DNA of 64,000 nt from an uncultured Bacilli bacterium (GTDB lineage Bacteria; Bacillota_I; Bacilli_A; RF39; UBA660), in assembly GCA_947600335.1 (NCBI GenBank), contig CANQGB010000001.1:2443-66442 (forward strand). The letters are read 5' to 3'. The notes under the pieces were generated by a model that worked only from the letters and a program-made list of their open reading frames with translations, was not told the origin of the DNA and searched no databases. Within the stretch, counting starts at the first letter, position 1; each line of letters opens with the position of its first letter. A program made the position numbers and the translations under genes. Below, piece by piece: positions 22,809-60,046 of this stretch.

Positions 22809-23240
22809 TTATTCTTCATCATCATGATGAGTATCATCTACTACTTTTTGAGCTCTAGCGCTGGTTATCTGAAATGGTAAAGTATTTAAGATTAATTCTG
22901 GTTCTTGATCGCTTGGTTCATTATCTAAAACTAAATCAGTAATTTTAAAAGTAGTTGATTTAGATTCTTGTAAAGCTTTAAAAGTAAAACCAATTTTTTT
23001 AGAACCTTGACCACCATTAATTTTACCTTCATAGATAATTTCACCAGGAGTAGAATTATCTACTTTGTTGGTTTTAAGTAAGCTAACAACTGAACCTTCA
23101 AGATACTCAAATATTTCCTCATTAAAGCTTAACTTAAATGAGGCACTACTAATTGGCTTATCAAGTACAAGTGATACTTGATTAGTTTCTAACACTCTTA
23201 TTAATGAAAATTGACTTGTTAATTTGGCATTTACATTCAT
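22809..23240 (-). CDS. hypothetical 143-aa protein, copy 1 of a duplicated paralog (acidic DDTHHDDEE tail)
   Basis: Intact ORF. A second copy with about 92% identity lies at 43332-43763. No family recognised. Confidence 0.5.
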   Translation of the reverse strand: MNVNAKLTSQFSLIRVLETNQVSLVLDKPISSASFKLSFNEEIFEYLEGSVVSLLKTNKVDNSTPGEIIYEGKINGGQGSKKIGFTFKALQESKSTTFKITDLVLDNEPSDQEPELILNTLPFQITSARAQKVVDDTHHDDEE

Positions 23241-23476
23241 AATATTCCATATCCTTTCTAATATAATTTTATTATAATAATCAGCTTAATTAAAAATTTT
23301 TAATTAAAGTTAACATTATAGTTGACAAAATATACTTGAGAAACCCCTAAAAATAAGGAAAAAAAGAGTAAATAATGCCCTAAATAATGTAAAAAGTGCA
23401 AAAAATGTAAAAAAATTTCAAAATATTCAAAATATCTGTTATAATATAGAAGAAATATTTAAGAAACGAAAGGAGG
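22810..23476. repeat. direct repeat copy 1 (about 670 bp: 143-aa gene plus divergent promoter region)
   Basis: Roughly 95% identical to 43331-43999. Confidence 0.85.
23417..23445 (+). promoter_or_regulatory. promoter in repeat copy 1 driving the glycan gene cluster (TTCAAA, 17 nt spacer, TGtTATAAT)
   Basis: Extended -10 with TG. Followed by a leader and then the GT2 gene at 23712. Confidence 0.45.
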
Positions 23477-23711
23477 ATAGTAATCATTGGTTTTTAATAA
23501 TTAACGATATAGGATATAAAAAGATTATAAAAAACTAAAAATGTAAATAATTACAATTTTTAAAACTGATATAAGTATTAAAAAAAATATTTTAAACTAT
23601 TTTCTGAAACCATGGAACAGCAAAATAAAAAGTAATAGAAAGGGTACAAAAGAAACCAGGAGATTATATGCTAAGTATTCCACATATAATTTTTTTTTAA
23701 GAAGGTGAAAT

Positions 23712-24566
23712 ATGAAAGTTGATATTATATGTCCATTATATAATGCTGAAAAGTATCTTAAAAAATTGCACGAATCATTTTTGAATCAAAAAAAGGTGAA
23801 TTTACATAAAATTAAATATATATTGACTGAAAGCAATGATTTTACATTAGACATATTAAAAAAATTAAAAAGCAATAAATGTGAATTTGTCTTAATAAAA
23901 AAAGAAGACTTTTCACACAGTTTAGTAAGAGAAAATGCTGCTTTTGAAAGCAAAGCGGATATAATTGTTTTTGTAACGCAAGATATTGAAATAAAAAACG
24001 ATAATTGGTTAGAAAATCTTGTAAAACCAATTGAGAAAGACAAAGTAGCTGCGACATATAGTAGACAACTAACAAAATATAATAATATTGAAAAATATAC
24101 TAGAGAAGCAAATTATCCAGAAAAGTCTTTAATAAAATCTAAAATAGACATTGATAAACTAGGATTAAAAACTTTCTTTTCATCCGATGCTTCTGCTGCA
24201 ATAAAAAGAGATATTTTTGTAGAACTTAATGGATACGATCATAAAGATTTGCCTATTAGTGAAGATATGTATTTTACCTATAAGCTTATTATGAGCGGCC
24301 ATAAAATAAAGTATTGTGCTGATTCAGTAATATATCATTCACATAATTTTACCTTAAGTGAAATTTATAATCGTTATAAATTAACAGGAGAATTTTTTAA
24401 AGAAAATAGTTACTTAGATAAATATGGAACTGATAGCTCAGGATTTACTCTAGCTAAATATGTTTTTAAAAGAATTATTCAAGAACATAGATTTACTCTT
24501 TTAATTAGATTCCCTTTTGATATGGGTGCTAGGTTAATTGGCATGAAAGTTGGGAAGTGGTTTTAA
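23712..24566 (+). CDS. glycosyltransferase family 2
   Basis: N-terminal DIICPLYNAEKYL, an internal DxD-type acidic region (SEDM), GT-A fold features. Confidence 0.65.
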   Translation: MKVDIICPLYNAEKYLKKLHESFLNQKKVNLHKIKYILTESNDFTLDILKKLKSNKCEFVLIKKEDFSHSLVRENAAFESKADIIVFVTQDIEIKNDNWLENLVKPIEKDKVAATYSRQLTKYNNIEKYTREANYPEKSLIKSKIDIDKLGLKTFFSSDASAAIKRDIFVELNGYDHKDLPISEDMYFTYKLIMSGHKIKYCADSVIYHSHNFTLSEIYNRYKLTGEFFKENSYLDKYGTDSSGFTLAKYVFKRIIQEHRFTLLIRFPFDMGARLIGMKVGKWF

Positions 24567-25799
24567 ATGATCGATTCAAATAAAAATGAACTAAAAAATA
24601 TTATCATTATTAATGATTTTGACTATGTACAAGGTGGAGCCAGTAAAGTTGCGATAGATACAGCAAATTCACTGGCTGAAAAAAATTATAATGTAATATT
24701 TTTTTGTGGAATATCAAGTTCCTTATCTCAACTAAATACAAAGGTAAAAAAAATATGTACCAATCAATACGAAGCTTTAAAAGATAAAAATCGAGTTCGA
24801 GGATTAATAAATGGGCTTTATAATTTTAAATCAGAAAAAATATTTAATAATTTATTAAAAGAATATGACAATAAAAATACTATTATCCATATCCATGGTT
24901 GGTCAAAATGTTTGTCTAGTAGTGTTATAAATGCTGGCTTTAAAAAAAAGTTTAAAATTGTATTGACTATGCATGATTACTTTACGGCATGTCCTAATGG
25001 TGGTTTTTTTAATTATCCAAAAAATGAAATTTGTAAATTGAAAGCATTATCTAGTAAGTGTATGATGTGTAATTGTGATTCAAGGAATTATTTATATAAA
25101 ATCTATAGGATAATAAGACAATTAATACAAAAAAATATTGTAAAATTAAACAAAAAAATAGAAAACGTTATATCAATATCTGATTTTAGTGAAAAAATAC
25201 TTAAGCCTTATCTTCCAAAAGATAAAGTAAATATTTATAGAGTATATAATCCAATTGAAATTATGAATGTTAAAAATGATATTAGTAAAAATCAATATTA
25301 CTTATTTGTTGGACGATTATCTCCTGAAAAAGGTGTGGAAACTTTTTGCAATGCAATTAGCAAAAGCAAGAAAAAAGGGATAGTTGTTGGAGATGGACCT
25401 GAAATGAAAAGATTGTCTTTAAAATATCCTGAAATAGATTTTGTTGGATGGAAAAATAAGCATGAGGTCGCTGATTATATGATTAAAGCAAAAGCATTAA
25501 TTTTCCCAAGTTTATGGTATGAAACAGTTGGCCTTACTTTACTTGAAGCCAATATGGTAGGCGTTCCTGGCATAGTAAGGAAAAATATTGCCACATCTGA
25601 ATTTGTACAAGATAATGTAAATGGCTTTTTATTTTCCAATGATGAAGATTTAATTAAAATATTGAAAAAATACGACACTATGTCTAAAGATACACTGTTA
25701 AATATGTCTAGATTAGCTAAATCAAATGCTAAAAATTATACTTATCAAAAATATATATATGATTTAGAAAAATGTTATAAAAATATAATTAATTCATAA
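24567..25799 (+). CDS. glycosyltransferase family 4 (GT-B)
   Basis: C-terminal EANMVGVPGIV...EFVQDNVNGFLF matches the GT4 E-x7-E motif region. Confidence 0.7.
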   Translation: MIDSNKNELKNIIIINDFDYVQGGASKVAIDTANSLAEKNYNVIFFCGISSSLSQLNTKVKKICTNQYEALKDKNRVRGLINGLYNFKSEKIFNNLLKEYDNKNTIIHIHGWSKCLSSSVINAGFKKKFKIVLTMHDYFTACPNGGFFNYPKNEICKLKALSSKCMMCNCDSRNYLYKIYRIIRQLIQKNIVKLNKKIENVISISDFSEKILKPYLPKDKVNIYRVYNPIEIMNVKNDISKNQYYLFVGRLSPEKGVETFCNAISKSKKKGIVVGDGPEMKRLSLKYPEIDFVGWKNKHEVADYMIKAKALIFPSLWYETVGLTLLEANMVGVPGIVRKNIATSEFVQDNVNGFLFSNDEDLIKILKKYDTMSKDTLLNMSRLAKSNAKNYTYQKYIYDLEKCYKNIINS

Positions 25800-25842
25800 T
25801 GTTGAAAATAAATTAAATTTTTATTTAAAGGAGGTAAAATTT

Positions 25843-27225
25843 ATGCTTTATCCATTTGCCTATATTTTATTTATCATTATTTTATATTTAATTTTAACTA
25901 GTAAAGATTTTGATTCATTATTTAAAAGATTTCTTTTATTAGAATGTTTCTTTAGTTGCTCAAGAATGAATATAGGATATTTAACTCATGTATTTAATTC
26001 TGAAATAGAGTACAATGATTTAATATTGGGCATAGTTTTTTGTCTATCAATAATACAAATATTTAGAAAGAGAAAGGTAAATAAAAAGGTTTTTAAATAT
26101 TCAATTATTTTAATAAGTGTTGTGTTAATTAGTATGTTAAATTGTTATTTGAATCCAGCGGCTATAGAAGTTGTAGGTTTTAATAGTAGTTTAGATAAAT
26201 ACTTTCGTGGTGACTTGTCACAATTAACTATGGTTCATTTTTCCATACAAAGCATAATGATGTTTGCAAGACTTATTATATTTATAACAATAATTAATGC
26301 TACAAAAGTATCTTTTTCAAAAGAAGAAATTTTAAATTTTTGTCAAAAGTTGTTGAAATATTTAAAAATTTTAATATTATATGGTTTATTTGAATTTATA
26401 ATAAAATTTATTTTTCATATTGATATCAGTACATATATATATGGTATTTTTGGACATGGTGTTTCTAGTCCCAATATAGTTAGTCGATTGTCGGGGTTAT
26501 CTAGAGAGCCAAGCTATTACTCATTAGCATTATTTATTTATCTATTTCTATCATTTTTATACAATCAATACTATAACAAAAATTTTAAAGTTAATGCTTG
26601 GATGATTTTAGCATTGTTTTTAGGATTTGTTTCAACCTCTTTTTCATTTGTTATTTGCTTTGTTTCTTTGACTTTATTATATATTAATAATTATCGTGAT
26701 TTTATGTTAACAGTTAAAAAAAAGAAACAACTGTTTAATATAATTTTTGGAATTTTATTAATTTCAGGGATTTTTATAATAGTAAATCAAAAATTCCTTG
26801 ATTTTGCTTTAGCTAGTAACTATACATCAATAAATAGGTTAGGTAATTCAATTATCCAAATAAAAAATGGCTTTAAAGGACTCTATATTTTAGGAAAAGA
26901 TTACTCTTCAGAAACTGTTAGGCTGATAGGGGCAATAATTGCTTTTAAAGCTGGTCTTCACCGCCCACTATTTGGTCTTGGCCTCGGCACCGTATATTGT
27001 GTAAATGGTGTTGTGTCAATAATATCTAATATTGGAATTTTAGGATTTATATGTTGGCTATTGCTTTTATTCAAAGGTTATACAAATAATATTAATTTTG
27101 TAGGAATTATTATAATATTACTAACTGTGCTTTTCTGTAACGATTTATATACGCTTTACGATGTGAGTTATGTAATTTTATTACCATTATATTCATTATA
27201 TTATGAAAATAGGAGGTTTAATTAA
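25843..27225 (+). CDS. O-antigen polymerase/ligase-like (Wzy family) membrane protein
   Basis: Ten or more transmembrane helices with a large periplasmic-type loop, 460 aa, located inside a glycan cluster. Confidence 0.55.
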   Translation: MLYPFAYILFIIILYLILTSKDFDSLFKRFLLLECFFSCSRMNIGYLTHVFNSEIEYNDLILGIVFCLSIIQIFRKRKVNKKVFKYSIILISVVLISMLNCYLNPAAIEVVGFNSSLDKYFRGDLSQLTMVHFSIQSIMMFARLIIFITIINATKVSFSKEEILNFCQKLLKYLKILILYGLFEFIIKFIFHIDISTYIYGIFGHGVSSPNIVSRLSGLSREPSYYSLALFIYLFLSFLYNQYYNKNFKVNAWMILALFLGFVSTSFSFVICFVSLTLLYINNYRDFMLTVKKKKQLFNIIFGILLISGIFIIVNQKFLDFALASNYTSINRLGNSIIQIKNGFKGLYILGKDYSSETVRLIGAIIAFKAGLHRPLFGLGLGTVYCVNGVVSIISNIGILGFICWLLLLFKGYTNNINFVGIIIILLTVLFCNDLYTLYDVSYVILLPLYSLYYENRRFN

Positions 27226-28356
27226 ATGAAAAAATGTATTGTATTTATTTCCATGAATACTAAAAAAGAGGGGGCAGAGAAATCTTTAATTTCTTTACAA
27301 AAATATTTAATTAATAGCAAGAATATTAAAACAATTACAATAATTCCAGAAAATGGTAAAATTGAAGAATTATTGAAAGAAAATAATATAGAATATATGA
27401 TCTGTAATTTTAGAAACTGCATAAATCTTAATAAAGGAAAACAATATATTAAAGGAAATCTAAAAAAAATATATAATCAAATTCAGGCAAAAAAATTAGC
27501 CAAAAAACTAAAAAAATATAATATTCAGATTGTTCATACTAATACATTAACCACTGATTTTGGCTATTATTTAGCAAAAGAATTAAATGCAAAACATATT
27601 TGGCATATCCGAGAATTAGCCAAAAAACAATTTAATTTTGATTTTGAATTAGGTAATGATTATATAATAAAATGCGTAAATCAGTCGTCAAAAATAATTT
27701 GTAACTCAGAATCAGTAAAAGAATATTATTCTAATTATTTTGATAAATCCAAAATTATTTGTGTTTATAATGGCGTAAGCACTGCAGAAAGCGGAAAAGA
27801 AGATTGGAATAATCCAAAATTTAAAATGGTTTTAGCAGGCCGCTTAAGTAGTGAAAAATGTCAAATGCTTGCAATAAAAGCATGTAAGATCTTAAAAGAA
27901 TCTAATTATAATAATTTTATATTAGATTTATACGGTGATGGAATTGATAAAGATATTTTAGAAAAAAATATAATTGATTTAAACTTAGAAAAATATATTA
28001 AATTAAAAGGCTTTTCCGATAATGTACCTTTTAAAAATTATCATTTAGGTTTAATGTGTAGTAGTAATGAAGCTTTTGGAAGAGTAACAGTAGAGTATAT
28101 GATGAATTCGCTTCCAGTTATAGGTGCTAATTCATTTGGAACAAAGGAGATTATTAAGGATAACATATCTGGCTATCTATTTAATGTTGATGATGCTAAA
28201 GATTTAGCAGATAAAATTATGATATTTTACAATAATCGAAAATTATGTCAAAAAATGGGAAAAGAAGGTAGAAAAATAGCATTGAGAAATTTTTCAGAAA
28301 ATAGCTATTGTGAAAATATTTATAAAATATATCAAAAAATTTTTTTGGAGGAATAG
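27226..28356 (+). CDS. glycosyltransferase family 4
   Basis: GT-B architecture. C-terminal EAFGRVTVEYMMNSLPVIGANSFGTKEII..GYLF. Confidence 0.7.
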   Translation: MKKCIVFISMNTKKEGAEKSLISLQKYLINSKNIKTITIIPENGKIEELLKENNIEYMICNFRNCINLNKGKQYIKGNLKKIYNQIQAKKLAKKLKKYNIQIVHTNTLTTDFGYYLAKELNAKHIWHIRELAKKQFNFDFELGNDYIIKCVNQSSKIICNSESVKEYYSNYFDKSKIICVYNGVSTAESGKEDWNNPKFKMVLAGRLSSEKCQMLAIKACKILKESNYNNFILDLYGDGIDKDILEKNIIDLNLEKYIKLKGFSDNVPFKNYHLGLMCSSNEAFGRVTVEYMMNSLPVIGANSFGTKEIIKDNISGYLFNVDDAKDLADKIMIFYNNRKLCQKMGKEGRKIALRNFSENSYCENIYKIYQKIFLEE

Positions 28357-28362
28357 ATAGAA

Positions 28363-29292
28363 ATGAATAAAATTAGTATAGTTATCACAACATTTAATGA
28401 TGAAAAAAATATTATCAATGTATTAAAAAATATATATGTTGACCAAAGTTATAAAGTTGATGAAATAGTAATTTGCGATGGTGGCTCAAAAGATAAGACA
28501 GTAAATGTTATTAAAAATTATTCAAAAGAAAATAAAATTAATATTAAATTAATATCTGATGGTAAGCGAAGAAATATTTCAGAAGGCCTAAATCAAGCTA
28601 TTAAAATGGCTACTAATTATTGGATTTTAATTATTGGAACAGGTAATAGTTATCAAAATGATTTTATCGAAAAAATAATAAATGCTCAGTCAAAACATAA
28701 AGTAGATCTAGTTTATGGGCCAATTTTAGGTATTGACAAAACTTTTTTTGGAAAAATTTTTAACCAATATTTTTTAAATGGTAATAAATCAATTGATATG
28801 GGGGCAAGTAATCATGGGGTGCTAATTAATAAAAAAATATTTGAAAAATATGGATATTTTTATGAAAAATTTATATATGCAGGAGAAGATACAGAATTTT
28901 ATATAAGGTTAAAAAATAATTTTGTAAAAGCTTATTATGAAAAAGAGGCTATTCTTTATTGGGATACACCTCAAACTGTAAATGAATATTTAAAAAAAAT
29001 GAGGGTTAATTCAATAGCTGATTGGCAAATATTTAAGCGTCGGAAAGTATGGATAAAAATCATCACCCCAATCATTCTTTTAATATTATACTCAATATTA
29101 GTTTTATTAAATCCGTGTTTTACATTATTAATCTTACCATTAATTGCATGTATTGCTGTAAAGAAGAGAACATTTAATATTTTAGCTATACTATTAGGAA
29201 TTATTACTAAGTATGTTATGGTGTATTATTATTTAAAAAATATAAAATATTCTAATTCAAAATATCATATTCAAAAAAATTATGAATTATAA
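28363..29292 (+). CDS. glycosyltransferase family 2 with C-terminal transmembrane anchor
   Basis: N-terminal ISIVITTFNDE..ICDGGSKD (GT-A DxD region) plus C-terminal transmembrane helices. Confidence 0.65.
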   Translation: MNKISIVITTFNDEKNIINVLKNIYVDQSYKVDEIVICDGGSKDKTVNVIKNYSKENKINIKLISDGKRRNISEGLNQAIKMATNYWILIIGTGNSYQNDFIEKIINAQSKHKVDLVYGPILGIDKTFFGKIFNQYFLNGNKSIDMGASNHGVLINKKIFEKYGYFYEKFIYAGEDTEFYIRLKNNFVKAYYEKEAILYWDTPQTVNEYLKKMRVNSIADWQIFKRRKVWIKIITPIILLILYSILVLLNPCFTLLILPLIACIAVKKRTFNILAILLGIITKYVMVYYYLKNIKYSNSKYHIQKNYEL

Positions 29293-29311
29293 ATAAGAGG
29301 AGTGGTAGTTT

Positions 29312-30526
29312 ATGAAATATTTGATATTAGGTGCTGGACCAGCAGGATTAACAGTCGCAAATAAATTAAAAGAATTAGGCGAAGAAGATTTTTTAGTTTT
29401 AGAAAAGGAAAATGAAGCTGGGGGATTATGTCGCTCCGTAATGGTAGATGGATCACCATTTGATATTGGTGGCGGCCATTTTTTAGATGTTAGGCGTGCA
29501 AATGTTAATAAATTTTTATTTAATTTTATGCCTGAAAATGAATGGAATTTATATGAACGAAATAGTCAAATTAAAGTAAATAATAATATAATAAATCATC
29601 CAATAGAAGCAAATATTTGGCAAATGAAAATTGAAGATCAAGTTGAATATCTAAAATCTATTGCAATAGCTGGATGTAATGTTGGGCAGCCGATGCCTAC
29701 AAAATTTACAGATTGGATATATTGGAAATTGGGAGCAAAAATAGCTGATGATTATATGATACCTTATAATCAAAAAATGTTTAGCAAAGAACTTGATGAA
29801 CTTGGTACATACTGGTTAGAAAAATTACCAAATGTTAGTTTTGAAGAAACACTATTGTCTTGTTTAGAAAAAAAAGCTTATGGTAAGCAACCAGGACACG
29901 CACAATTCTATTATCCTAAAAAATATGGCTATGGAGAATTATGGCTAAGAATGGCAAAAAATATAAACAATAAAATATTGTATGAAAAAGATGTCAATGA
30001 AATAAATTTTGATACATTAACTGTTATAACAAGCGATGGTGAAGAATATCAAGCCGAAAATATTATTACGACAATACCATGGATGGAATTTTCAAAAATC
30101 TATGGAATGCCTAAAGAAATAAAAGAATCAATAAGCAAATTAAAATATAGTTCTATTCAAACAGAATACTTTAATAATAGTTTAGATACTGATGCACATT
30201 GGATATATTATCCTGATCCTCAATTGCCTTATCATCGAATTTTAGTAAGGAGCAACTTTTGCACTAATAGTCGAGGATATTGGACAGAAACAAATTCTGA
30301 GCGAATAAATACAGAAATTCCAAATTCAAATTTTAAATATCTAAACAAATATGCTTATCCTTTAAATACAATAGACAAACCTGAAATAATGAAACGGTTA
30401 TTAGAATGGTGTAAAAATAAAAATGTTTATGGCTTAGGAAGATGGGGAGAGCACCAACATTATAATTCTGATGTTACAGTAGATTTAGCCCTTCAATTAA
30501 CTGATGATTTAATCAATAAAAATTAA
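29312..30526 (+). CDS. FAD/NAD(P)-binding oxidoreductase, UDP-galactopyranose mutase-like
   Basis: N-terminal ILGAGPAGL..LEKENEAGGLCRS dinucleotide-binding motif. Size and context suit a Glf-like enzyme. Confidence 0.45.
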   Translation: MKYLILGAGPAGLTVANKLKELGEEDFLVLEKENEAGGLCRSVMVDGSPFDIGGGHFLDVRRANVNKFLFNFMPENEWNLYERNSQIKVNNNIINHPIEANIWQMKIEDQVEYLKSIAIAGCNVGQPMPTKFTDWIYWKLGAKIADDYMIPYNQKMFSKELDELGTYWLEKLPNVSFEETLLSCLEKKAYGKQPGHAQFYYPKKYGYGELWLRMAKNINNKILYEKDVNEINFDTLTVITSDGEEYQAENIITTIPWMEFSKIYGMPKEIKESISKLKYSSIQTEYFNNSLDTDAHWIYYPDPQLPYHRILVRSNFCTNSRGYWTETNSERINTEIPNSNFKYLNKYAYPLNTIDKPEIMKRLLEWCKNKNVYGLGRWGEHQHYNSDVTVDLALQLTDDLINKN

Positions 30527-30573
30527 ATAAAATTATTTTTAAACAATCAAAAAAGGAAGGAATTAAAAACATC

Positions 30574-31629
30574 ATGAAAAAAAGAAATTCTTCAATAGAA
30601 TTATTGAAAATCATCGCAATTATATTAATTATTATTCAGCATAGTTGTCCCGTTTATGGAAATGTATCTGGGGGGGGGTATATTAATATAAAATATGCCA
30701 CTACAAATATTCAACAATTAATAATTAGTATTTTATCTTGTTTAGGAGAAATTGGAAATATTATATTTATAATGTGTTCTTCATGGTTTCTACTTGAAAA
30801 AAATAAAATAAATAGAAAAAAATTAATTCAAATAATATTAAATAGTTTAATAATTTCAATATTATATTTAGTCATTTTATCATTATTTGGTTTCCATTTT
30901 AATAAAGTATTAATTATCAAACAATTTTTGCCAATAACAATGAAAAATAATTGGTTTATAGGATGTTATTTATTATTTTATATGCTCACCCCATATTTAA
31001 ACATTATTATAAAAAATATTGATAAAAAAAATTTGCAAAATATTAACATAGTTTTATTTATTTTGTATAGTGGATTTTACTTTGTTTTAGGCAATAATGC
31101 GTACTATTTTAATGAATTAATTGGATTTATCTATATTTACTTAATAGTGGCATATGTAAAAATGTATATGTTAGATTTTCAAAAAAACATAAGTTTAAAT
31201 AAAAAATTATTAATATTCAGTTTAATCGGTTTTATAGGTTCTATGTTACTTACAAATTATATTGGATTATCTATTCCTTTATTATCTTCTAAATTAATGC
31301 ATTGGAATAAATTAACAAATCCATTTTATCTTTTATTTAGCATAAGTTTGCTAAACATATTTAAAAATAGAAATTTTTACAATAAAACTATTAATTATAT
31401 TTCATCATTATCATTAATAATATATTTAATACATGAAAACATTCTTTTTCGAGATTATATCAGACCAATATTTTATAATAGTGTGTTTAAATACCAAAAA
31501 TATATATTATGGATTTTTATTGAAATTATATTATTGATATTGTATTCATTAATACTATCAATTATCTATAATAAAACAGTTCAAAAATTTTTAAATTATA
31601 TAATTGAAAAAAAATTAAAATTTGAATAA
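30574..31629 (+). CDS. acyltransferase family 3 (O-acetyltransferase) membrane protein; contains an in-frame G9 tract
   Basis: Polytopic, with the acyltransferase-3 N-terminal pattern (LKIIAIILIIIQHS). G9 at 30670-30678 encodes GGG. Confidence 0.6.
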   Translation: MKKRNSSIELLKIIAIILIIIQHSCPVYGNVSGGGYINIKYATTNIQQLIISILSCLGEIGNIIFIMCSSWFLLEKNKINRKKLIQIILNSLIISILYLVILSLFGFHFNKVLIIKQFLPITMKNNWFIGCYLLFYMLTPYLNIIIKNIDKKNLQNINIVLFILYSGFYFVLGNNAYYFNELIGFIYIYLIVAYVKMYMLDFQKNISLNKKLLIFSLIGFIGSMLLTNYIGLSIPLLSSKLMHWNKLTNPFYLLFSISLLNIFKNRNFYNKTINYISSLSLIIYLIHENILFRDYIRPIFYNSVFKYQKYILWIFIEIILLILYSLILSIIYNKTVQKFLNYIIEKKLKFE

Positions 31630-31705
31630 ATTTAAGTTTCATTTTAGCACTTTAAATATATTATTAATTTTTGATGAAAAATATTATTTATTTGGAGGTT
31701 ATAAA

Positions 31706-32599
31706 ATGTATAATATTGGAGTTATCATATTAAACTATTTAGCATATCAAGCAACAATGGATACAATTGCTTCATTTAAAAAACAAAAAACTAAGGGAAT
31801 GAATGTAAAATATGTTATTGTTGATAATTGCTCAAATAATAATTCTTATTTAGAATTAAAGAAGAAATATAAAAATTGTGAAGATATTATTGTTGTTAAA
31901 GCAGATAAAAATTTAGGCTTTGCAAATGGGAATAATTTAGGTTATAAAACATTATTAAAATTTATGAATCCTGATTTTGTAATTATATCTAATGATGATA
32001 TTTTAATTGAAAATAATTCGTTATTTACATGGCTTATTGAGTGTTTTGATAAATATCATTATGCTGTCTTAGGACCTGACATTTATTCTATTAATGGAAA
32101 ATTTCATCAAAGTCCAGTTATTCCAAACGATACGAATGTATTAAAATGTTATAAGCAACTTATTCGCTATAAAATGAGTAAAATAAAAGGCCAAATAAGA
32201 AAATTATTGAATCAGCCTTCTCCATATGTTGGCTATCCATCATGGGATAATCGATATTATAAAGAATTTCATAATGATATGGCATTACATGGCTCATTTC
32301 AAATTTTCTCAAAATTATATTTTGATGTCTATTCAGAGCCTTATGATCCTTCAACATTTTTATATATGGAAGAAGATATATTGTTTTTACGGTGTAAAAT
32401 GTCTGTGGGGGGGGGGTTAAAAATGGTATATGATCCGAGTTTTCAAATTAAACATTTGCAAGCTGTTTCAACTAATATGATAAACTCAACTAACTATGAT
32501 AAAGAAATTTTTAGAAAAACACAATTGATTAAATCTATGAATATATATATTCATGTTTTAAAAAAAATGAAAAAAGAAGCATCTTGCAAATTTAAATAA
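31706..32599 (+). CDS. glycosyltransferase family 2; contains an in-frame G10 tract
   Basis: N-terminal IGVIILNY..VDNCSNN GT-A motif. RBS TGGAGG upstream of the ATG at 31706. G10 at 32407-32416. Confidence 0.6.
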   Translation: MYNIGVIILNYLAYQATMDTIASFKKQKTKGMNVKYVIVDNCSNNNSYLELKKKYKNCEDIIVVKADKNLGFANGNNLGYKTLLKFMNPDFVIISNDDILIENNSLFTWLIECFDKYHYAVLGPDIYSINGKFHQSPVIPNDTNVLKCYKQLIRYKMSKIKGQIRKLLNQPSPYVGYPSWDNRYYKEFHNDMALHGSFQIFSKLYFDVYSEPYDPSTFLYMEEDILFLRCKMSVGGGLKMVYDPSFQIKHLQAVSTNMINSTNYDKEIFRKTQLIKSMNIYIHVLKKMKKEASCKFK

Positions 32600-32629
32600 T
32601 TAAAAAAATAAAATATAATAAATGTAGAT

Positions 32630-34090
32630 ATGGTGGGAATAATGAAACAAAAATCAATTAAATTAAATTCTATTTTTAATATTTTAAGACAAGTATGTGC
32701 AATGTTATTTCCTATAATTACTTTTCCATATGTTTCTAGAATATTACAATCTGAAAATTATGGAAAAGTTAATTTTGTAAATTCAGTAGTTAGTTATTTT
32801 ATATTACTTGCAAGTTTAGGAATCAATAGTTATGCAATTCGTGAAGGTTCACCGTTAAGGAAGAATAAACAACAATTTCAAGAATTTGCTAATCAAATAT
32901 TTACAATAAACATGCTTTCAACTCTAATATCATATATTTTGCTGATATTATTATTTTTATTTTGGAAAAAGCTTAATTCATATGGGAGTCTTGTTTTAAT
33001 ATTAAGTTTAACAATAATTTCTTGGAATATTGGAGTAGAATGGCTATATTCAATTTATGAAGATTTTGGATATATAACATTTCGAAGTATTGTAGTACAA
33101 ATTATATCATTAGTATTATTATTTGTTTTTGTTAGATCAAAGGATGATTATTTAATTTATGCAGCTATTTTAGTATTATCAACTGGTGGAGCTAATTTAT
33201 TTAATTTTATTCATGCAAAAAAATACATACGTCTTCATATTACTAAAAGCCCAAATATAAAAAGACATATTATTCCAATGTTAATCTTATTTTGCAATTC
33301 TTTAATGACAACAATTTATGTAAATTCAGATATTACGATTCTTGGCATACTTCGTAATGATATTGAAGTTGGAGAATATAGTGTTGCTGTTAGAATATAT
33401 TCAATAATTAAAAGTATTCTTAATGCTATGTTAGTTGTTACACTACCAAGACTTTCTTTTTATGTAAATACTGGTGATAAGGAACATTATGACATTCTTT
33501 CTAAAAAAACTTTAAAATCATTATTAATAATTGTTTTTCCAGCAGTAGTAGGCCTTCTTATGGTAAGCCCTGATATTGTTTTAATATTAGTAGGGAATAA
33601 TTACTCTAATGTAATATTACCATTACGTTTATTAAGTATTGCTCTTGCTTTTACACTAATTGGTTCGTTTTTTGTTTCTGCGGTTTTAATACCACACAAA
33701 AAGGAAAAATTAGTTTTATATTGTACTATTGTCAGTGCAGTTATTAATTTAATTCTTAATTTTATTTTAATTCCTAAATTTGGGATGGTAAGTGCTGCAA
33801 TTACTACTATTATCGCTGAGTGTATTGTTATGATAATGGCAATATGCTTTTCAAGAGGTATTTTTTCATTTAAGGGATATAAGAAAAATATTATTGAAAT
33901 TTTAATTGGAATAGTTTTAATAGTAATTATATGTATACTAGTTGATTTAATTCATGCTAATGTATTTATTGATTTAATTATGAAAATTGTTTTTTCTTGT
34001 ATTTTTTATGGAATGGTATTATTGTTTACCAAAAATGAAATTTTCTATGAATTGAGTAATGAAATTAAAAAAAAATTTTTAAAGAGGTAG
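32630..34090 (+). CDS. Wzx-type polysaccharide flippase (MOP superfamily)
   Basis: Twelve or more transmembrane helices. N-terminal ILRQVCAMLFPIITFPYVSRIL matches the polysaccharide biosynthesis protein family pattern. Confidence 0.65.
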   Translation: MVGIMKQKSIKLNSIFNILRQVCAMLFPIITFPYVSRILQSENYGKVNFVNSVVSYFILLASLGINSYAIREGSPLRKNKQQFQEFANQIFTINMLSTLISYILLILLFLFWKKLNSYGSLVLILSLTIISWNIGVEWLYSIYEDFGYITFRSIVVQIISLVLLFVFVRSKDDYLIYAAILVLSTGGANLFNFIHAKKYIRLHITKSPNIKRHIIPMLILFCNSLMTTIYVNSDITILGILRNDIEVGEYSVAVRIYSIIKSILNAMLVVTLPRLSFYVNTGDKEHYDILSKKTLKSLLIIVFPAVVGLLMVSPDIVLILVGNNYSNVILPLRLLSIALAFTLIGSFFVSAVLIPHKKEKLVLYCTIVSAVINLILNFILIPKFGMVSAAITTIIAECIVMIMAICFSRGIFSFKGYKKNIIEILIGIVLIVIICILVDLIHANVFIDLIMKIVFSCIFYGMVLLFTKNEIFYELSNEIKKKFLKR

Positions 34091-34096
34091 TTTTAT

Positions 34097-35182
34097 ATGA
34101 TAGAAAATAATAAAAAAAGAATGTCCTTTCTTGATATAGCTAGAGGTATAGCTATAATTCTTATGGTATGTGGACATTGTGAAACATCCGGGGGGGGGGT
34201 TATTGAAAAATTTGTTAATTTATTTAGTATGTCCGTTTTTATTTTTATAAGTGGATATTTATTTAAAGATAAAAAATTTAATAATATTAGAGAACTTTTT
34301 AAATATATAGTTCATAAAGCAAAAAAATTATATTTATTTTATTTAAAATATGAATTACTATTTTTGGCATTGACAAACATATTCTTTAAAATTGGATTTT
34401 ATAGTTCAGAAATAAGTTATAGTGGTAAATTTATTTACCCAATAAATTCATTAAAAATAGTATTACAAAAAATTATTGAAATAGTTTTAGGCATGGGTAG
34501 AGAACCTTTTTGTGGAGCATTTTGGTTTATAATTTCTTTAATATTTATAATTTTTGGTTATTCAATTATACAATATATAAGTTATAAGCAAAATATTCTG
34601 AATAAAAAATTATGTGAAAAAATTGCAGTTATTATATGTTTCATAATTGGATGCCTAATGCAAGCAACTATAAATATACCAAGGGTTGCTCCAGCTTTTA
34701 CTTTAATGTTAGTCTATGATTTAGGAAATGAAGCATATATCAATAGAGAAAAAATTAAATTTAATAATTACATTTTAATGATTATTTGCTTTATTTTATT
34801 ATTAATCTTAAATAATTTTGGTAAAATTAGTATGAACAGTAATGAATTTACAAATCCGCTATACTTTATTATTTGTTCTTTAGCTGGAATATATTTTGTA
34901 ATTGCCATTTCAAATTTTATATTGGAAAAAACAAATAAAATAGCCAAAGTTTTAGAATATATTGGGAGAATAACTCTTGAAATAATGGCATGGCATTTTA
35001 TCGGTTTTAAAATTGCCATGTTGATACAACTTATATTTAAACATGTCGCATTTCCAGATTTAGCATACTTAAAAGGATACAATAATTCAAATTTATGGTA
35101 TTTTGTTTATATAATGTGTGGAATTGGATTACCAGTTATGATATCAAGTATCAAAAAAAAACTAGCTTCAAAAACTTGTTAA
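34097..35182 (+). CDS. acyltransferase family 3 membrane protein; contains an in-frame G10 tract
   Basis: Polytopic. N-terminal LDIARGIAIILMVCGH. G10 at 34190-34199 encodes GGG(V). Confidence 0.55.
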   Translation: MIENNKKRMSFLDIARGIAIILMVCGHCETSGGGVIEKFVNLFSMSVFIFISGYLFKDKKFNNIRELFKYIVHKAKKLYLFYLKYELLFLALTNIFFKIGFYSSEISYSGKFIYPINSLKIVLQKIIEIVLGMGREPFCGAFWFIISLIFIIFGYSIIQYISYKQNILNKKLCEKIAVIICFIIGCLMQATINIPRVAPAFTLMLVYDLGNEAYINREKIKFNNYILMIICFILLLILNNFGKISMNSNEFTNPLYFIICSLAGIYFVIAISNFILEKTNKIAKVLEYIGRITLEIMAWHFIGFKIAMLIQLIFKHVAFPDLAYLKGYNNSNLWYFVYIMCGIGLPVMISSIKKKLASKTC

Positions 35183-35479
35183 TATTTTAGAAATTATATC
35201 ATAAATTACAGTATTGAAAAATTGCAATTCTTATGTTAATTATTATATACAATATTAATCGTGAAATAAAAAGTTAAATTCTAGTTTTTAAAGAAAGAAA
35301 AAAATGAACAAGAAAGTTCCAAAAAAGGGACTTTTTTTGCTAGATGTAGAAAAAGAAAAAATAAGATATAATATATTTATCCAGTAAAAAATTTTATTGC
35401 ATACAAAAGGACAACAGAAAGCTGGATTTAAAAAAATATAAAAATAAATTTCTGTTGAGAATAAGTGCAAAAAATTATT

Positions 35480-35990
35480 TTAATGGATGCTTCTATAAAT
35501 ATATTTACTACTTTTTAGTTTTGTAAATATTTTAAGAGATAATGTTTTAGAATAACATTACCTATGTCAATTTTATTAACTCCAATTATAAGGAGTCTTG
35601 CCATTTAAAGACTCACGAAGAGTATAATTGATATGATCACAATAGAAAATATTTAATCTCATTTCTCCGGTATTTGGGTTCAAGTATAAGTTGAAAATCA
35701 TGTAAAGAATTAGACATAGCTTCAGATGTTTTTTTGATTTAATTTACCAAGCATTAAAGAAATATCTTCAAAATAAAAAGTTTGAATATAAGGATCAGAA
35801 TAAGAATTAAAACGGTATCCATTTCAGTAGTTTTAACTTTGGTTTATCTAATTTAAATTTTTCATAGTCTTTGAAATTATGTCTATCATAGTTTAAAGGA
35901 TCTTTCTTTTTTTTATATTTGTTTTTAAAATCTTTTCTTTTAAAGAAAGATTAATTAGTCTTCATTTCTAAAAACACCTTCATTAATATA
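35480..35990 (-). pseudogene. degenerate transposase/integrase remnant (fragmented frames)
   Basis: The minus-strand frame around 35590-35640 encodes a GKTPYNW-like peptide reminiscent of rve-type integrase core motifs. No intact ORF. The interval is about 900 bp of non-coding sequence between acyltransferase genes. Confidence 0.25.
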
Positions 35991-36022
35991 ATGATATAAG
36001 CTACTAAAAAGGATGTTTGTAG

Positions 36023-36051
36023 TTGACAAAGTCTGGGGGGGGGGTTATAAT
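36023..36051 (+). promoter_or_regulatory. sigma-A promoter whose 17-nt spacer contains a G10 homopolymer (candidate phase-variable promoter)
   Basis: TTGACA at 36023-36028, spacer aagtctGGGGGGGGGGt, TATAAT at 36046-36051. The ATG of the downstream gene lies 29 nt further on. Confidence 0.6.
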
Positions 36052-36080
36052 TACTTTAATCTTTTAAAGGATGATTAAGT

Positions 36081-37196
36081 ATGACCAAAAGTAAAAGAAA
36101 TTCCACTCTAGAAATATTAAGAATTATATCTATGCTTCTGATTATTATGCATCACTATTCTGTACATGGTTTTGAATTAATGAATTTACCACTTGCTTTA
36201 AATAAATTTATTGTTGGTTTTCTTTCATTAGGGGGAAAATTAGGAGTATCATGTTTTATTTTAATATCAGGATATTACATGATTGATTCTAAATTTACAT
36301 TGCAAAAGTTTTTAAAATTAGTTGGGGAAATATGGTTTTATTCAATTTCAATGTTAATTTTATTTTTAACAGTATTGAATCCTGTTGAGCTTAATATGAA
36401 ATTGATAATATCCAGTATTTTTCCTTTATTATCTAGTTTTTATTGGTTTATGACCGCCTATGTTTTGCTAATGATTCTTAGTCCTATTTTAAATTTAATA
36501 ATTAATAATATAGGTAAATGTTTACATGAAAATCTAATTATTTTTTCTATATTAATATGGTCATTTTTACACAATTTTTTAAATTTTGAACTTTATTATA
36601 ATGATTTTATATGGTTTATAGTTCTTTATTTTATAGCAGGTTATTTAAAGAAATATCCAAAAAGAAAAACAAAAAAACATTTTCTTAAAGCTTTTATATC
36701 GTATTTAATAATTATAATTAGTGATATTTTATTAATATATATTGGTAGTAAATATAATATAAATTATCTAGTGGAAAAAAGTGCTCATTTTTCAGAATTA
36801 AATAGCCCATTTATTTTATTTTCTTCTATTGAATTGTTTTTAGGTTTTTCTAATTCAAAGCCATTTAATAATAAAATAGTAAACAATGTAGCTAGCACAA
36901 CACTTGGTATATACCTTATTCATGATAATAGAATAATGCGTCCTTTTTTATGGAATACAATATTTAATAATTCCAAAATGTTTTTTTCCAATTTTTTATT
37001 ATTGCATTCTATTTTTTCTGTTTTAATTGTATTTATTTTTTGCATGATAATCGATTTAATTCGGCAAAATACAATTGAAAAATTATATTTAAAAATTTTA
37101 AATAAGTTTTTAATAAAGATTAAATTATTTTTAGAAAAAATTATTTTAAAAATAAAAAATTTATTTTTTGCAAATAAACTTACTAACCAAAATTAA
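36081..37196 (+). CDS. acyltransferase family 3 membrane protein
   Basis: Polytopic. N-terminal LEILRIISMLLIIMHHYSVH is the acyltransferase-3 pattern. Confidence 0.6.
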   Translation: MTKSKRNSTLEILRIISMLLIIMHHYSVHGFELMNLPLALNKFIVGFLSLGGKLGVSCFILISGYYMIDSKFTLQKFLKLVGEIWFYSISMLILFLTVLNPVELNMKLIISSIFPLLSSFYWFMTAYVLLMILSPILNLIINNIGKCLHENLIIFSILIWSFLHNFLNFELYYNDFIWFIVLYFIAGYLKKYPKRKTKKHFLKAFISYLIIIISDILLIYIGSKYNINYLVEKSAHFSELNSPFILFSSIELFLGFSNSKPFNNKIVNNVASTTLGIYLIHDNRIMRPFLWNTIFNNSKMFFSNFLLLHSIFSVLIVFIFCMIIDLIRQNTIEKLYLKILNKFLIKIKLFLEKIILKIKNLFFANKLTNQN

Positions 37197-37423
37197 TATT
37201 TTTTTTAATTATTAAAATTAATATCTTTAGACTGCCGAAATCAGACCTATTAATAGGCCATTTTTTAATTATATAACTGAATAGCTAGAAAAATGTGAAA
37301 TCATCTAATAATTTAATATTTTACGAAAATGTGATAAAATAGCATAATTTTCAAGCAAAAGTGTGATAATTCTATTAAAATTCTCTGCAAAAGTGTGATT
37401 TAATATAATCAAAAGGTGATAAA

Positions 37424-38353
37424 ATGAAAAGATTTATAACTGCCAAATTGATTGAATGGAAAAATAGCCAAGATAGGAAAAATCTCATTTTAAAAGGAAC
37501 AAGGCAAGTAGGGAAAACTTATATTTTACAAGAATTTGGTAAAAATAATTATGATAAAGAAATACCTAAATTATTTGAATCTATGCTTATCGAAAAATTA
37601 AAGGCTTACTATATTGTTGAAGGTATGTCTGAAGGTGTTTATAGTTGGGTTAATAATAAGGATATAGAAAAAGTTAATAAACTTCAACAAAACATTTTAG
37701 ATACTTATGAAGCTGATTTTTCTAAGCATGTGGATACAAATGAAGCCAATAAAATATCGTTAATCTGGAATGGAATACCTTCCCAATTAGCTAGAGAAAA
37801 TAAAAAATTCGTTTATCAATTAGTTAAAGAAGGAGCTCGAGCTCGAGAATATGAAAATGCTCTAAACTGGTTAAAAGATAGTAACTTAATTTCTAAATGT
37901 TTTTTAGTTAATAAATGTGCTTTCCCTTTAAAAGCTTATAATGATTTATCAGCCTATAAAATATATATGCTAGATGTTGGACTTCTAAGAAAGATGGCTA
38001 ATTTAGATAGTAGCATTATTTTAGAAAGCAATAAATTATTTGAAGAGTTTAAGGGTTCTTTTACTGAAAATTACGTAGTAAATGTTTTAAATTATTTATT
38101 TAATTCTTCGCCAAATTATTATACATTTGATCGAAATGAAATTGATTTTGTTATTCAAATAAAAAATAAAATTATCCCTATTGAAATAAAGTCTAATAAA
38201 AGCACTAACCACAATAGTTTAACTAAATATAATGCTAATAATGACAATGAGTTATCATTTAGATTTTCTTTAAACAATTTGAGTAAAGATGGAAAAATTA
38301 TAAATATCCCATTGTATTTCATTGAATATATTTGTAATCTTAATATTTATTAA
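37424..38353 (+). CDS. AAA_14/DUF4143-family ATPase paralog, apparently internally deleted (Walker A retained, Walker B region missing)
   Basis: GTRQVGKTY Walker A is followed directly by the DUF4143-like C-terminal part. Full-length paralogs lie at 44212 and 58832. Confidence 0.45.
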   Translation: MKRFITAKLIEWKNSQDRKNLILKGTRQVGKTYILQEFGKNNYDKEIPKLFESMLIEKLKAYYIVEGMSEGVYSWVNNKDIEKVNKLQQNILDTYEADFSKHVDTNEANKISLIWNGIPSQLARENKKFVYQLVKEGARAREYENALNWLKDSNLISKCFLVNKCAFPLKAYNDLSAYKIYMLDVGLLRKMANLDSSIILESNKLFEEFKGSFTENYVVNVLNYLFNSSPNYYTFDRNEIDFVIQIKNKIIPIEIKSNKSTNHNSLTKYNANNDNELSFRFSLNNLSKDGKIINIPLYFIEYICNLNIY

Positions 38354-38564
38354 AAATAACTAATATAGACAAAAGTTATTCCAGTACACTGGAATAACTT
38401 TTGAAATTAAACAAATATATTATTATAGTATACAAAGTCAATTGGATATATCTAGCACAACTAAAAAATTATATGTCTAAATAACTTGTTTTTAATCCCC
38501 AAAAATATTATAATCATAGCAAACACATGGAAATAAACTCGAAAAATTTAGAAAGTAGGATTAT

Positions 38565-43330: not shown

Positions 43331-43999
43331 ATTATTCTTCATCATCATGATGAGTATCATCTACTACTTTTTCTGCTTCAGCCCCAGTTACCTGAAACGG
43401 TAAAGTATTTAAGATCAATTCTGGTTCTTGTTTACTCGGTTCATTGTCTAAAACTAAATCAGTGATTTTAAAAGTAGTTGATTTAGTTTCTTGTAAAGCT
43501 TTAAAAGTAAAACCGATCTTTTTAGAACCTTGACCACCATTAATTTTACCTTCATAGATAATTTCACCAGGAGTAGAATTATCAACTTTGTTAGTTTTAA
43601 GTAAGCTTACAACTGAACCTTCAAGATACTCAAATATTTCCTCATTAAAACTTAATTTAAATGAGGCACTACTGATTGGCTTATCAAGCACAAGTGATAC
43701 TTGATTAGTATCAAGCACTCTGATTAATGTAGATTGAGAAGTTAATTTTGCATTTACATTCATAATATTCCATGTCCTTTCTAATATAATTTTACTATAA
43801 TAATCAGCTTAATTAAAAATTTTTAATTAAAGTTAACATTATAGTTGACAAAATATCCTTGAGAAACCCCTAAAAATAAGGAAAAAAAGAGTAAATAATG
43901 CCCTAAATAATGTAAAAAGTGCAAAAAATGTAAAAAAATTTCAAAATATTCAAAATATCTGTTATAATATAAAAGAAATATTTAAGAAACGAAAGGAGA
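43331..43999. repeat. direct repeat copy 2
   Basis: About 95% identical to 22810-23476. Confidence 0.85.
43332..43763 (-). CDS. hypothetical 143-aa protein, copy 2 of the duplicated paralog
   Basis: About 92% aa identity to the gene at 22809-23240. Confidence 0.5.
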   Translation of the reverse strand: MNVNAKLTSQSTLIRVLDTNQVSLVLDKPISSASFKLSFNEEIFEYLEGSVVSLLKTNKVDNSTPGEIIYEGKINGGQGSKKIGFTFKALQETKSTTFKITDLVLDNEPSKQEPELILNTLPFQVTGAEAEKVVDDTHHDDEE

Positions 44000-49446: not shown

Positions 49447-49926
49447 ATGAATGTTAAAAGATTAAAAAAATTAGCTATGATAATTAAACTATCGCTAAGT
49501 AATGATGGATACAAAAAAGCAGAATATTTAAAAAAGCATGGTAATTTTAAACAATTTGGTGATAAAAACTTTTGGTATCCGCGAATTATTCCTTCAGATA
49601 CTGAATTAATTTCTATTCACAATAATGTTAAAGTTGCAACAGATGTTTATTTTTGTACTCATGATGTTTTACATAATTTATTTAATGATGAAACATCGGG
49701 GGGGGGGTCAAAATTTAGCAGATACTTTGGTGAAATAGAAATATATGATAATGTTTTTATTGGAGCTAGAAGCACAATAATGTATAACGTTAAAATAGGG
49801 CCAAATGCAATAGTTGCTGCTAATAGTGTTGTCACAAAAGATGTACCTGAAGGAGCAGTAGTTGCCGGCAATCCTGCTAGAATAATAGGAAAGTATGAAA
49901 CTATAAAATTTAAAAGGCTGAAATAA
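49447..49926 (+). CDS. hexapeptide-repeat (LbH) O-acetyltransferase; contains an in-frame G10 tract
   Basis: C-terminal IGARSTIMYNVKIGPNAIVAANSVV..VVAGNPARI LbH repeats. G10 at 49698-49707. Confidence 0.65.
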   Translation: MNVKRLKKLAMIIKLSLSNDGYKKAEYLKKHGNFKQFGDKNFWYPRIIPSDTELISIHNNVKVATDVYFCTHDVLHNLFNDETSGGGSKFSRYFGEIEIYDNVFIGARSTIMYNVKIGPNAIVAANSVVTKDVPEGAVVAGNPARIIGKYETIKFKRLK

Positions 49927-57969: not shown

Positions 57970-58831
57970 AATTAAAATAAGATAATTTTTAAAAAATATT
58001 AGATTTTCATTATGATAACATAGAGATATTTATTCGTAAAAAATTATTAATTTGAAAGAGCAAATTTAGTTATAAAAGAAAAAAGTATTTAAGAGTTATT
58101 CATGGCTTTTGTAATTAAAATTTAATAAGATTATAATTAAAATGTAATAAATAGAAAAAATCATACTAAAAAATTACTTTACAAAAAATAATTAAAATAT
58201 TTTAGTTAAGTTTTGTGCAAGATTTATGCAAGTCATATTGTAATTGAAATAAAAAACAACTAATTAAGAAATGGGTATTTTTATTCAAAAAATGCATAAA
58301 GATATAGTATTATTAATAAATAATCTTTGAATTATGTTTTCCATTTGTTCTTTGAAATACCAAGTTTTGGAAAATTATTTCCAAAACTTGGCTATTCATT
58401 AAGTATTGGTAGTCCTATCTCCACTAAAAAAATTAGTGAAACATTAACATCTAATCATTTAGCTACTAGTAATCATATCGCAGAATATTAAATGACTGTC
58501 TAAAGGGCAAAAATTATCCAGATAATAATCTATGCGGTCGATAGTTATTAGGCAAAAAAGCCAATACAGATTGCCGAAAATAATAATGGAATGTGATATT
58601 ATCAAGTATCTTTAAATGGTATAACTAAAATAAATGTAATAGATTGGTTATTAAAAAACTAATAATAAATTAAAAAGTTTTTACGCTCTATCGTACTAAC
58701 TTTTTATTTTAAGTAAATTGTTTAATCGTAAAAAAAGTATAAAAAAAACATTTTTTTACGCTATGTAGTAATAAATTGACATCTTTTAATTAATATAATA
58801 TAATGTTATTAATTAGAAAGAGTGAGCTTCA

Positions 58832-60046
58832 ATGATAAAGAGAGAAAAATATTTAAAAGATATTCGCGGTTTCTACAATCAAGATTTAATAAAAGTTATA
58901 ACCGGTATGAGAAGAAGTGGTAAGTCTATTCTTCTTCTTCAAATTATGGATGAATTAAAAGAGCAAGGTATAAAAAGTGACCAAATAATATATCTAAATT
59001 TTGAAATAATTGAAAATCTAAAATATGCTAACCCAGATAGTTTAAACAGCTATATTTCTGACAAAATTGTAGGAAATCAAAAATGTTACTTATTTTTTGA
59101 TGAAATTCAAAATGTATCAAAATGGGAAATGGTTATAAATTCCTTTAGAGCTAAGTATAAAGAAAATATTTCTATATTTATTACTGGTTCTAATAGTAAA
59201 TTATTATCTGGCGAACTTGCAACTCTTATAGCTGGAAGATATGTAAGTTTTAATATATATCCATTTACTTTTAGTGAAGTATGCGAATTAACCAATAATA
59301 AAGATAAAAACAAATTTGAATTAGAAGAATTATTTAATAATTATATAAAATGGGGTGGAATGCCTCAACGATTTAGCCAAAACAATGAAATCGAAATTAA
59401 AAATTATTTAAAAGATGTCTATAACTCAATCGTAATAAAAGATATAATTGAAAGATTTAAAATAAAAGATATTGATTTATTTAATAGAATAATAACATAC
59501 ATTATAACAACTCCCGCCCAAACATTTTCTGCTAATTCTCTTGTAAAATATTTTGAAAGTGAAAATCGAAATGTATCTTTAGAAACAATATATAATTATT
59601 TAGAATATATTACTGAATCATTAATTATAAAAAAAGCTGAAAGATATGATATCAGAGGCAAAAGAATATTAACAGGTAAGTACAAATATTATGTCGCTGA
59701 TTTAGGATTTACTGAAATACTTAGTGAAGGAAGAAAAGAACAAATTGGTTTTAGATTAGAGAATATAGTATATAATGAACTAATTTCTCGAGGATATAAT
59801 GTAAATGTTGGAAATATTGAAGAAGGAGAAATAGATTTTATAGCAACTAAATTTGAAGAAAAAATATATGTTCAAGTAGCTTATATATTAGCTGATGAAA
59901 CTATTGTCAATCGAGAATTTAGTGTATTTGATAGTATCAAAGATAATTATCCAAAGTACGTTATATCTATGGATAAATTAAACTTTTCCCAAAATGGCAT
60001 TATTCATAAAAACATTATTGATTTTTTGTTATCGGATGAAATATAA
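58832..60046 (+). CDS. AAA_14/DUF4143-family ATPase (full length)
   Basis: Walker A GMRRSGKS, Walker B LFFDEIQ, C-terminal DUF4143-like region. Confidence 0.6.
   Translation: MIKREKYLKDIRGFYNQDLIKVITGMRRSGKSILLLQIMDELKEQGIKSDQIIYLNFEIIENLKYANPDSLNSYISDKIVGNQKCYLFFDEIQNVSKWEMVINSFRAKYKENISIFITGSNSKLLSGELATLIAGRYVSFNIYPFTFSEVCELTNNKDKNKFELEELFNNYIKWGGMPQRFSQNNEIEIKNYLKDVYNSIVIKDIIERFKIKDIDLFNRIITYIITTPAQTFSANSLVKYFESENRNVSLETIYNYLEYITESLIIKKAERYDIRGKRILTGKYKYYVADLGFTEILSEGRKEQIGFRLENIVYNELISRGYNVNVGNIEEGEIDFIATKFEEKIYVQVAYILADETIVNREFSVFDSIKDNYPKYVISMDKLNFSQNGIIHKNIIDFLLSDEI

Follow-up and report, generated by a model that had tools for sequence, protein, structure and literature searches.

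How is the expression of an acyltransferase gene set when a run of ten guanines occupies most of the spacer between the -35 and -10 hexamers of its apparent promoter? Positions 36023-36051 of a 64-kb stretch of DNA from an uncultured low-GC Bacilli metagenome-assembled genome (MAG) raise this question. We refer to the whole stretch as the window, and coordinates are those of the window unless a contig is named.

Candidate promoter around the G10 tract

Direct reading of the window gives TTGACAAAGTCTGGGGGGGGGGTTATAAT at 36023-36051, laid out as TTGACA-aagtct-GGGGGGGGGG-t-TATAAT. The initial annotation had described a TTGACA, a 17-nt spacer containing G10, and a TATAAT in front of an acyltransferase gene, and the letters match that description exactly. 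By its sequence, the flanking DNA of the tract reads as a perfect sigma-A/sigma-70 promoter in the right position. The features of the region, all on the + strand, are as follows.

36023..36028, +, -35 hexamer TTGACA, perfect consensus (sequence and consensus scan)
36029..36045, +, 17-nt spacer made of aagtct, G10, and t (sequence)
36035..36044, +, non-coding homopolymeric G10 tract, presumed slippage-prone element (sequence; same in metagenome assemblies L001 and L002)
36046..36051, +, -10 hexamer TATAAT, perfect consensus, without the TG of an extended -10 and with G at -14 and -15
36058..36059, +, predicted transcription start A/A, 7-8 nt past the -10 (from sequence)
36066..36074, +, Shine-Dalgarno sequence AAAGGAtGA, with 9 nt from the end of GGA to the ATG (sequence)
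36081..37196, +, AT3-only acyltransferase gene under the promoter, 371 aa, PF01757 (Pfam)

The ATG at 36081 lies 30 nt past the end of the -10 (36051). The site scores 12/12 in the consensus scanner and is the sole 12/12 site within 28-44 kb; across the whole 64-kb window, the exact pattern TTGACA-N17-TATAAT occurs only twice, here and at 58776. The G10 tract falls entirely within the -35/-10 spacer, and the spacing is therefore set by its length. Between the tract and the ATG, stops are present in all three forward frames, including an in-frame TGA 9 nt before the ATG, so the tract is non-coding. This bears out the earlier statement that the tract is distinct from the coding tracts of the region, and it rules out the candidate reading of the tract as a piece of an N-terminal extension or of an upstream ORF. 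An Rfam search returned only one tRNA, at 9255, and no riboswitch or known RNA near the tract. The second perfect TTGACA-17-TATAAT, at 58776-58804, sits 28 nt before a 404-aa ORF (58832-60046) for which NCBIfam gave no match at E<=1e-10.

The window has a G+C content of 26% and contains five G runs of 9-10 nt and zero of 6-8 nt, while its longest C run is 5. Runs of at least nine G's are far beyond chance in this window. From its base frequencies, P(TTGACA)xP(TATAAT) is 7.9e-7, and eight offsets keep a G10 inside a 17-nt spacer; with this multiplier, the chance of a perfect TTGACA-N17-TATAAT around a given G10 is 6e-6; allowing spacers of 16-18 nt raises it to 2e-5. Over all 12 tracts seen in the lineage, the same chance comes to ~2e-4. 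The placement of the G10 inside a consensus promoter is more than chance.

A further reading takes the poly-G for an artefact of sequencing or assembly, or the arrangement for a coincidence. In its favor, two-colour Illumina chemistry yields poly-G artefacts, and contig L002 breaks at another G tract. Two independent metagenome assemblies from ENA, L001 and L002, however, contain the identical promoter and G10, which makes an assembly artefact unlikely. The tract is internal and the same in all three assemblies, sister tracts keep long ORFs in frame, and the chance probability is ~2e-5. We find the artefact or chance reading hardly credible.

The Bacilli/Firmicute group uses TTGACA-17-TATAAT promoters. 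Among the proteins encoded in the window are MiaB, a nucleotidyltransferase of the YlbM/TmcAL type, and a member of the YtvI family; the closest named relatives of the nucleotidyltransferase are labeled "MAG: Bacilli bacterium" at ~60% identity, and translation with genetic code 11 leaves the long ORFs uninterrupted. Consensus matches of at least 11/12 number 13 in the window. Five of these 13 are intergenic, though intergenic DNA makes up just 12% of the sequence, and all five face a same-strand gene start 11-93 nt downstream. Canonical promoters thus appear to be used in this genome, and 36023-36051 is, as judged from sequence, probably the promoter in use for the acyltransferase gene.

The acyltransferase gene and its glycan locus

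The product of 36081-37196 matches Pfam Acyl_transf_3 with E=1.1e-19 and 71.1 bits (cut-off 31) over residues 9-324 of 371. It carries an R14-x10-H25 motif, in MTKSKRNSTLEILRIISMLLIIMHH; the R/K-x10-H motif of AT3 proteins, located in the first transmembrane helix, is listed as essential (PMC9558356). PF01757 is the sole domain found, with no fused SGNH domain, and judged by eye, no exact match to the RxxR of the first cytoplasmic loop is obvious after TM2. The exact 371-aa protein forms a singleton cluster among 5.8 billion clustered proteins, with the next relatives ~50% identical. Among species-representative genomes, the only match in a search for orthologues was a Clostridia MAG gene, 38% identical.

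The upstream AT3 gene ends at 35182, and the interval 35183-36080 (~900 bp) is closed by stops in all six frames. Since this interval splits the acyltransferase gene from its upstream neighbor, the gene would need a promoter of its own. Apart from an additional 11/12 site on the + strand, located 450 bp upstream and having a 19-nt spacer, the other + strand promoter-like sites in the gap reach 9/12 at best. A minus-frame peptide in the gap ("...ESLNGKTPYN") suggested a transposase or integrase remnant; this candidate was dropped, as the gap gave no Pfam match at E<=10 and no plasmid DNA match. On the other side of the gene, a gap of 227 bp separates the stop codon of the acyltransferase from a truncated DUF4143 gene and contains five copies of AAA(A/G)(T/G)GTGAT(A) at 37290-37425, which could be operator-like or decayed coding sequence.

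Another explanation places the main transcription of the gene in read-through from the upstream polysaccharide operon, which would leave tract length with little phenotypic effect. Terminator prediction found no convincing intrinsic terminator on either side of the acyltransferase gene, and in particular none on the + strand between 35182 and 36023; operon read-through could therefore make expression less dependent on tract length. In addition, AT3 homologues of ~50% identity are internal operon members, and the promoter tract is absent before all of those examined. Against this stand the 900-bp AT-rich non-coding gap between the genes and the rarity of a 12/12 promoter (two in 64 kb), which is hard to explain without selection, the more so since a 12/12 promoter jointly with a G10 has p ~1e-5. 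We consider predominant read-through quite improbable and continue with the reading in which the gene is transcribed from 36023-36051.

The acyltransferase is the last gene of a surface-polysaccharide locus at ~23.7-37.2 kb. This locus contains GT2 and GT4 glycosyltransferases, a Wzx-type flippase, a flavin oxidoreductase/mutase-like protein, and three AT3 paralogues that are mutually only 26-35% identical. Besides the promoter tract, four companion tracts lie in coding sequence.

30670..30678, +, G9 in the AT3 paralogue 30574-31629, in frame (ON)
32407..32416, +, G10 in the GT2 glycosyltransferase 31622-32599, in frame (ON)
34190..34199, +, G10 in the AT3 paralogue 34097-35182, in frame (ON)
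49698..49707, +, G10 in the hexapeptide-repeat transferase 49447-49926, in frame (ON)

All five putative switches are thus ON in the assembly, with the four coding tracts in frame and the promoter tract at its optimum. An origin of the promoter tract by duplication from a paralogue was rejected: its flanks and those of the paralogue coding tracts match by eye at 8/20 bases, which is not above the AT-rich background.

Several other features of the window were observed along the way. A direct repeat of ~590 bp, 95% identical between its copies at 22809-23400 and 43332-43930, brackets a ~20-kb block with the glycan locus and a helicase. Each repeat carries a minus-strand 143-aa ORF without an assigned family, together with the region upstream of this ORF, and a related strain (described below) holds three copies (contig L004, 13169-15849). 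The repeat may mediate exchange of the glycan locus. Farther away, 2484-5372 encodes a 962-aa protein in which a type IV pilin-like methylation motif at the N-terminus precedes repeated segments of HYR-like and thrombospondin type-1-like sequence. By its sequence, it is an unusual large pseudopilin-anchored surface protein.

Tract variation in relatives and poly-G spacers elsewhere

The promoter is present in three records, namely the window, L001, and L002. All three have G10 and are 100% identical around the promoter, and they therefore probably represent one strain; no length polymorphism at 36035-36044 was found among these records. A search of JGI metagenomes for the promoter with other tract lengths gave 0 matches.

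A related strain is represented by GCA_947630615.1 and four metagenome contigs, together L004-L008. Its backbone is ~94% identical to the window downstream, from 38459 on, including a 519-aa ORF and the helicase. The polysaccharide locus varies between strains, with different gene sets in window ~23700-38459 and in L004 1-8296. The upstream genes of the related strain encode an ATP-grasp protein, a GT2, a flippase, and a UDP-galactopyranose mutase, and they contain three G10 tracts of their own. The DUF4143 ATPase is full length in this strain (400 aa) and truncated in the window (309 aa).

Within the related strain, one tract differs between two assemblies, L006 and L004. They align over 10,323 bp with 0 mismatches and a lone single-base indel, at a tract that reads G10 in L004 (5085-5094) and G9 in L006 (2214-2222). 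This change re-partitions the flanking ORFs of the ATP-grasp family, from 194+119 aa with G10 to 202+168 aa with G9. An error of sequencing or assembly at the homopolymer could account for the difference. Another related MAG (L016) contains four G9-10 tracts, of which two lie in AT3 genes. Taken from the sequences at hand, poly-G tracts in glycan genes appear to be a habit of this lineage, with at least one seen to vary, subject to the caveat of homopolymer error. L004, L016, and the window together have 12 tracts, every one of them G rather than C on the sense strand.

These data also bear on whether the tract is evolutionarily static, that is, a G-rich spacer in a functional promoter without biologically relevant slippage. 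The G10 of all three records is compatible with a static tract, as is the in-frame state of all four coding tracts, which would have a probability of ~1% if their states were random. However, the distribution of G runs is bimodal, with runs of G6-8 missing, and the tracts are confined to glycan genes across three MAGs. The G9/G10 difference is the sole change in 10.3 kb of the related strain, and mononucleotide runs of at least nine are hypermutable in all bacteria examined. We regard a static tract as unlikely and retain the reading of a slippage-prone one.

The architecture itself is found well outside this lineage. We scanned metagenome and viral contigs with the pattern TTGACA-N(0-8)-G9-N(0-8)-TATAAT and obtained matches on at least 120 metagenome contigs and nine viral contigs (L018-L146). 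These hold at least 126 distinct TTGACA-G(9-15)-TATAAT sites, on contigs of 24-66% G+C. Spacers of 15-19 nt occur in 106 of the 126 sites listed, where the geometry of the pattern predicts 58 (p=8e-19), and those of 16-18 nt in 68 of the 126, where 36 are expected (p=3e-9). This clustering at 15-19 nt indicates that the poly-G-spacer architecture is recurrent. The tract directly abuts the -10 in 72 of the 126 sites listed (57%), against 14 sites expected. Across the sites listed, the first downstream ORF of 60 aa or more begins a median of 39 nt past the -10. The heavy use of 15- and 19-nt spacers is what would be expected if slippage shifts promoters around the optimum. On sequence, the at least 126 sites look like a broad class of candidate phase-variable promoters.

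The genes downstream of the sites listed are diverse and mostly unannotated. Among them are surface proteins, namely type IV pilin-like (4), collagen-like (2), BspA-LRR, Ig-like, and DUF285 proteins; no acyltransferase lies downstream of a poly-G-spacer site among the matches listed. A recurrent sub-family, TTGACAGAC(T/C)(C/G/A)(G/A)(T/C)AG(n)TATAAT, was observed in human-gut contigs of ~60% GC. L037 and L137, two contigs of 26% GC in which poly-G-spacer promoters precede pilin-like genes, were tried as relatives of the host and set aside, the N-terminal pilin motif being the only common feature.

Predicted effect of tract length and known phase-variable systems

We simulated tracts from G6 to G14. 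TTGACA stays in register (16-18 nt) only at G9-G11, and the optimal 17 nt is reached at G10 alone, with 16 nt at G9 and 18 nt at G11, as the initial annotation had claimed. At none of these lengths does an alternative -35 in register exceed 2/6 matches, and the extended -10 TG is also absent. Without a substitute -35 and without an extended -10, expression should depend on tract length. In each respect that sequence can address, the initial annotation is supported.

How steep this dependence would be is a separate matter. The switch could be effectively binary, ON at G10 and OFF otherwise. The same lack of a back-up -35 and of an extended -10 speaks for this, and 38 of the 126 listed metagenome sites have spacers of 15 or 19 nt, which look like parked OFF states. 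In E. coli and B. subtilis, however, perfect -35/-10 hexamers usually tolerate 16 or 18 nt with reduced rather than abolished activity, and with its perfect hexamers, the promoter here may stay fairly active at these spacings. The porA promoter, in which the gain or loss of one G in the -35/-10 spacer alters the transcript level, has intermediate levels (PMC3899988). From this precedent, we take control at the G10 promoter to be probably graded, a "rheostat" rather than an ON/OFF switch, and we consider a binary switch unlikely.

Our preferred reading, which we hold to be probable, is that the G10-spaced acyltransferase promoter is a slippage-prone element providing porA-type expression control. 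In the scheme that we infer, from slippage at 36035-36044 and its graded effect to the acceptor glycan and the selective benefit, a housekeeping sigma-A type promoter would drive the gene of a stand-alone AT3 O-acyltransferase, which lies at the distal end of a surface-polysaccharide locus that varies between strains. Most of its spacer would be a hypermutable G10 tract, to which slipped-strand mispairing in replication would add or remove a G. G10 would give the optimal 17-nt spacer and high expression, and G9 or G11, at 16 or 18 nt, reduced expression; at G8 or fewer (15 nt or less) and G12 or more (19 nt or more), there would be essentially no -35/-10 pairing. The population would then be a mixture of cells O-acylating the glycan to different degrees. 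Together with the three frameshift-type tracts in the locus (two AT3, one GT2) and the one in the hexapeptide transferase 13 kb away, the promoter tract may provide combinatorial, reversible decoration of the glycan, whose likely benefit would be bet-hedging against phage or host immunity.

The mechanism class is already textbook, and the locus described here would add a case to it rather than a mechanism of its own. The porA/opc/vlp type is defined by a hypermutable repeat of ~8 nt or more, and the tract at 36035-36044 is a G10. In Neisseria meningitidis porA, as here, the spacer is homopolymeric G and the controlled gene affects the cell surface. The differences are that porA encodes a porin in a Gram-negative pathogen, whereas the present promoter belongs to an AT3 O-acyltransferase gene in a low-GC Bacilli MAG, has two perfect hexamers, and is known from sequence. 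Campylobacter jejuni resembles this genome in being AT-rich and in having several G9-10 tracts in the glycan-modification genes of its capsule, LOS, and flagellar-glycosylation loci. In contrast to the canonical -35 and -10 that frame the tract here, its poly-G contingency tracts are, as far as is known, mostly intragenic, and its promoters are not known to have a strong -35. A survey of the Campylobacter loci is cited as reference 54 of PMC11868660.

Simple repeats also act in promoters of the low-GC lineage related to Bacillota. In Mycoplasma hyorhinis, poly-A in the vlp promoter, and in M. mycoides, a TA repeat in the vmm promoter spacer, confer transcriptional ON/OFF control (PMC10502178). 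Those repeats are A or TA and control lipoprotein genes, unlike the G tract before a gene for a glycan-modifying enzyme in a 26%-GC genome that otherwise lacks G runs. In Haemophilus influenzae, TA-repeat length alters the -35/-10 spacing of hifA/hifB (PMC3899988), which differs from the present case in its dinucleotide repeat, its bidirectional promoter, and its fimbrial product. Phase-variable AT3 proteins are likewise known, with H. influenzae oafA switching via intragenic tetranucleotide repeats and Salmonella OafB via Dam-methylation epigenetics (PMC9558356). These proteins share PF01757 and the R/K-x10-H motif with the acyltransferase described here, and they switch surface-glycan O-acetylation on and off. 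The acyltransferase differs in having a homopolymer in a promoter spacer, while two paralogues of its locus take the intragenic route. What seems particular to this case is the host, the perfect hexamers, and the apparent pairing, within a single locus, of two AT3 paralogues under translational switches and a third under a transcriptional one.

A broader reading, to which we give even chances, is that a low-GC Bacilli lineage operates a Campylobacter/Neisseria-style multi-switch poly-G system on a glycan locus. One of the three AT3 paralogues would have moved from translational (intragenic) to transcriptional (promoter-spacer) control, placing a graded channel beside the binary ones, and poly-G-spacer promoters would be widespread and largely uncatalogued. 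Homopolymer slippage is classically tied to Gram-negative mucosal pathogens and mycoplasmas. If the reading is true, uncultured Bacilli of low GC content that are represented by MAGs only would diversify the O-acylation of their surface glycans by homopolymer slippage, both translationally and transcriptionally. TTGACA, at least nine G's, and TATAAT would form a minable signature, with more than 120 candidate phase-variable promoters from one metagenome scan. Since tract states can be read from metagenomic reads, they could be used to track in situ how phages or immunity select on glycan decoration.
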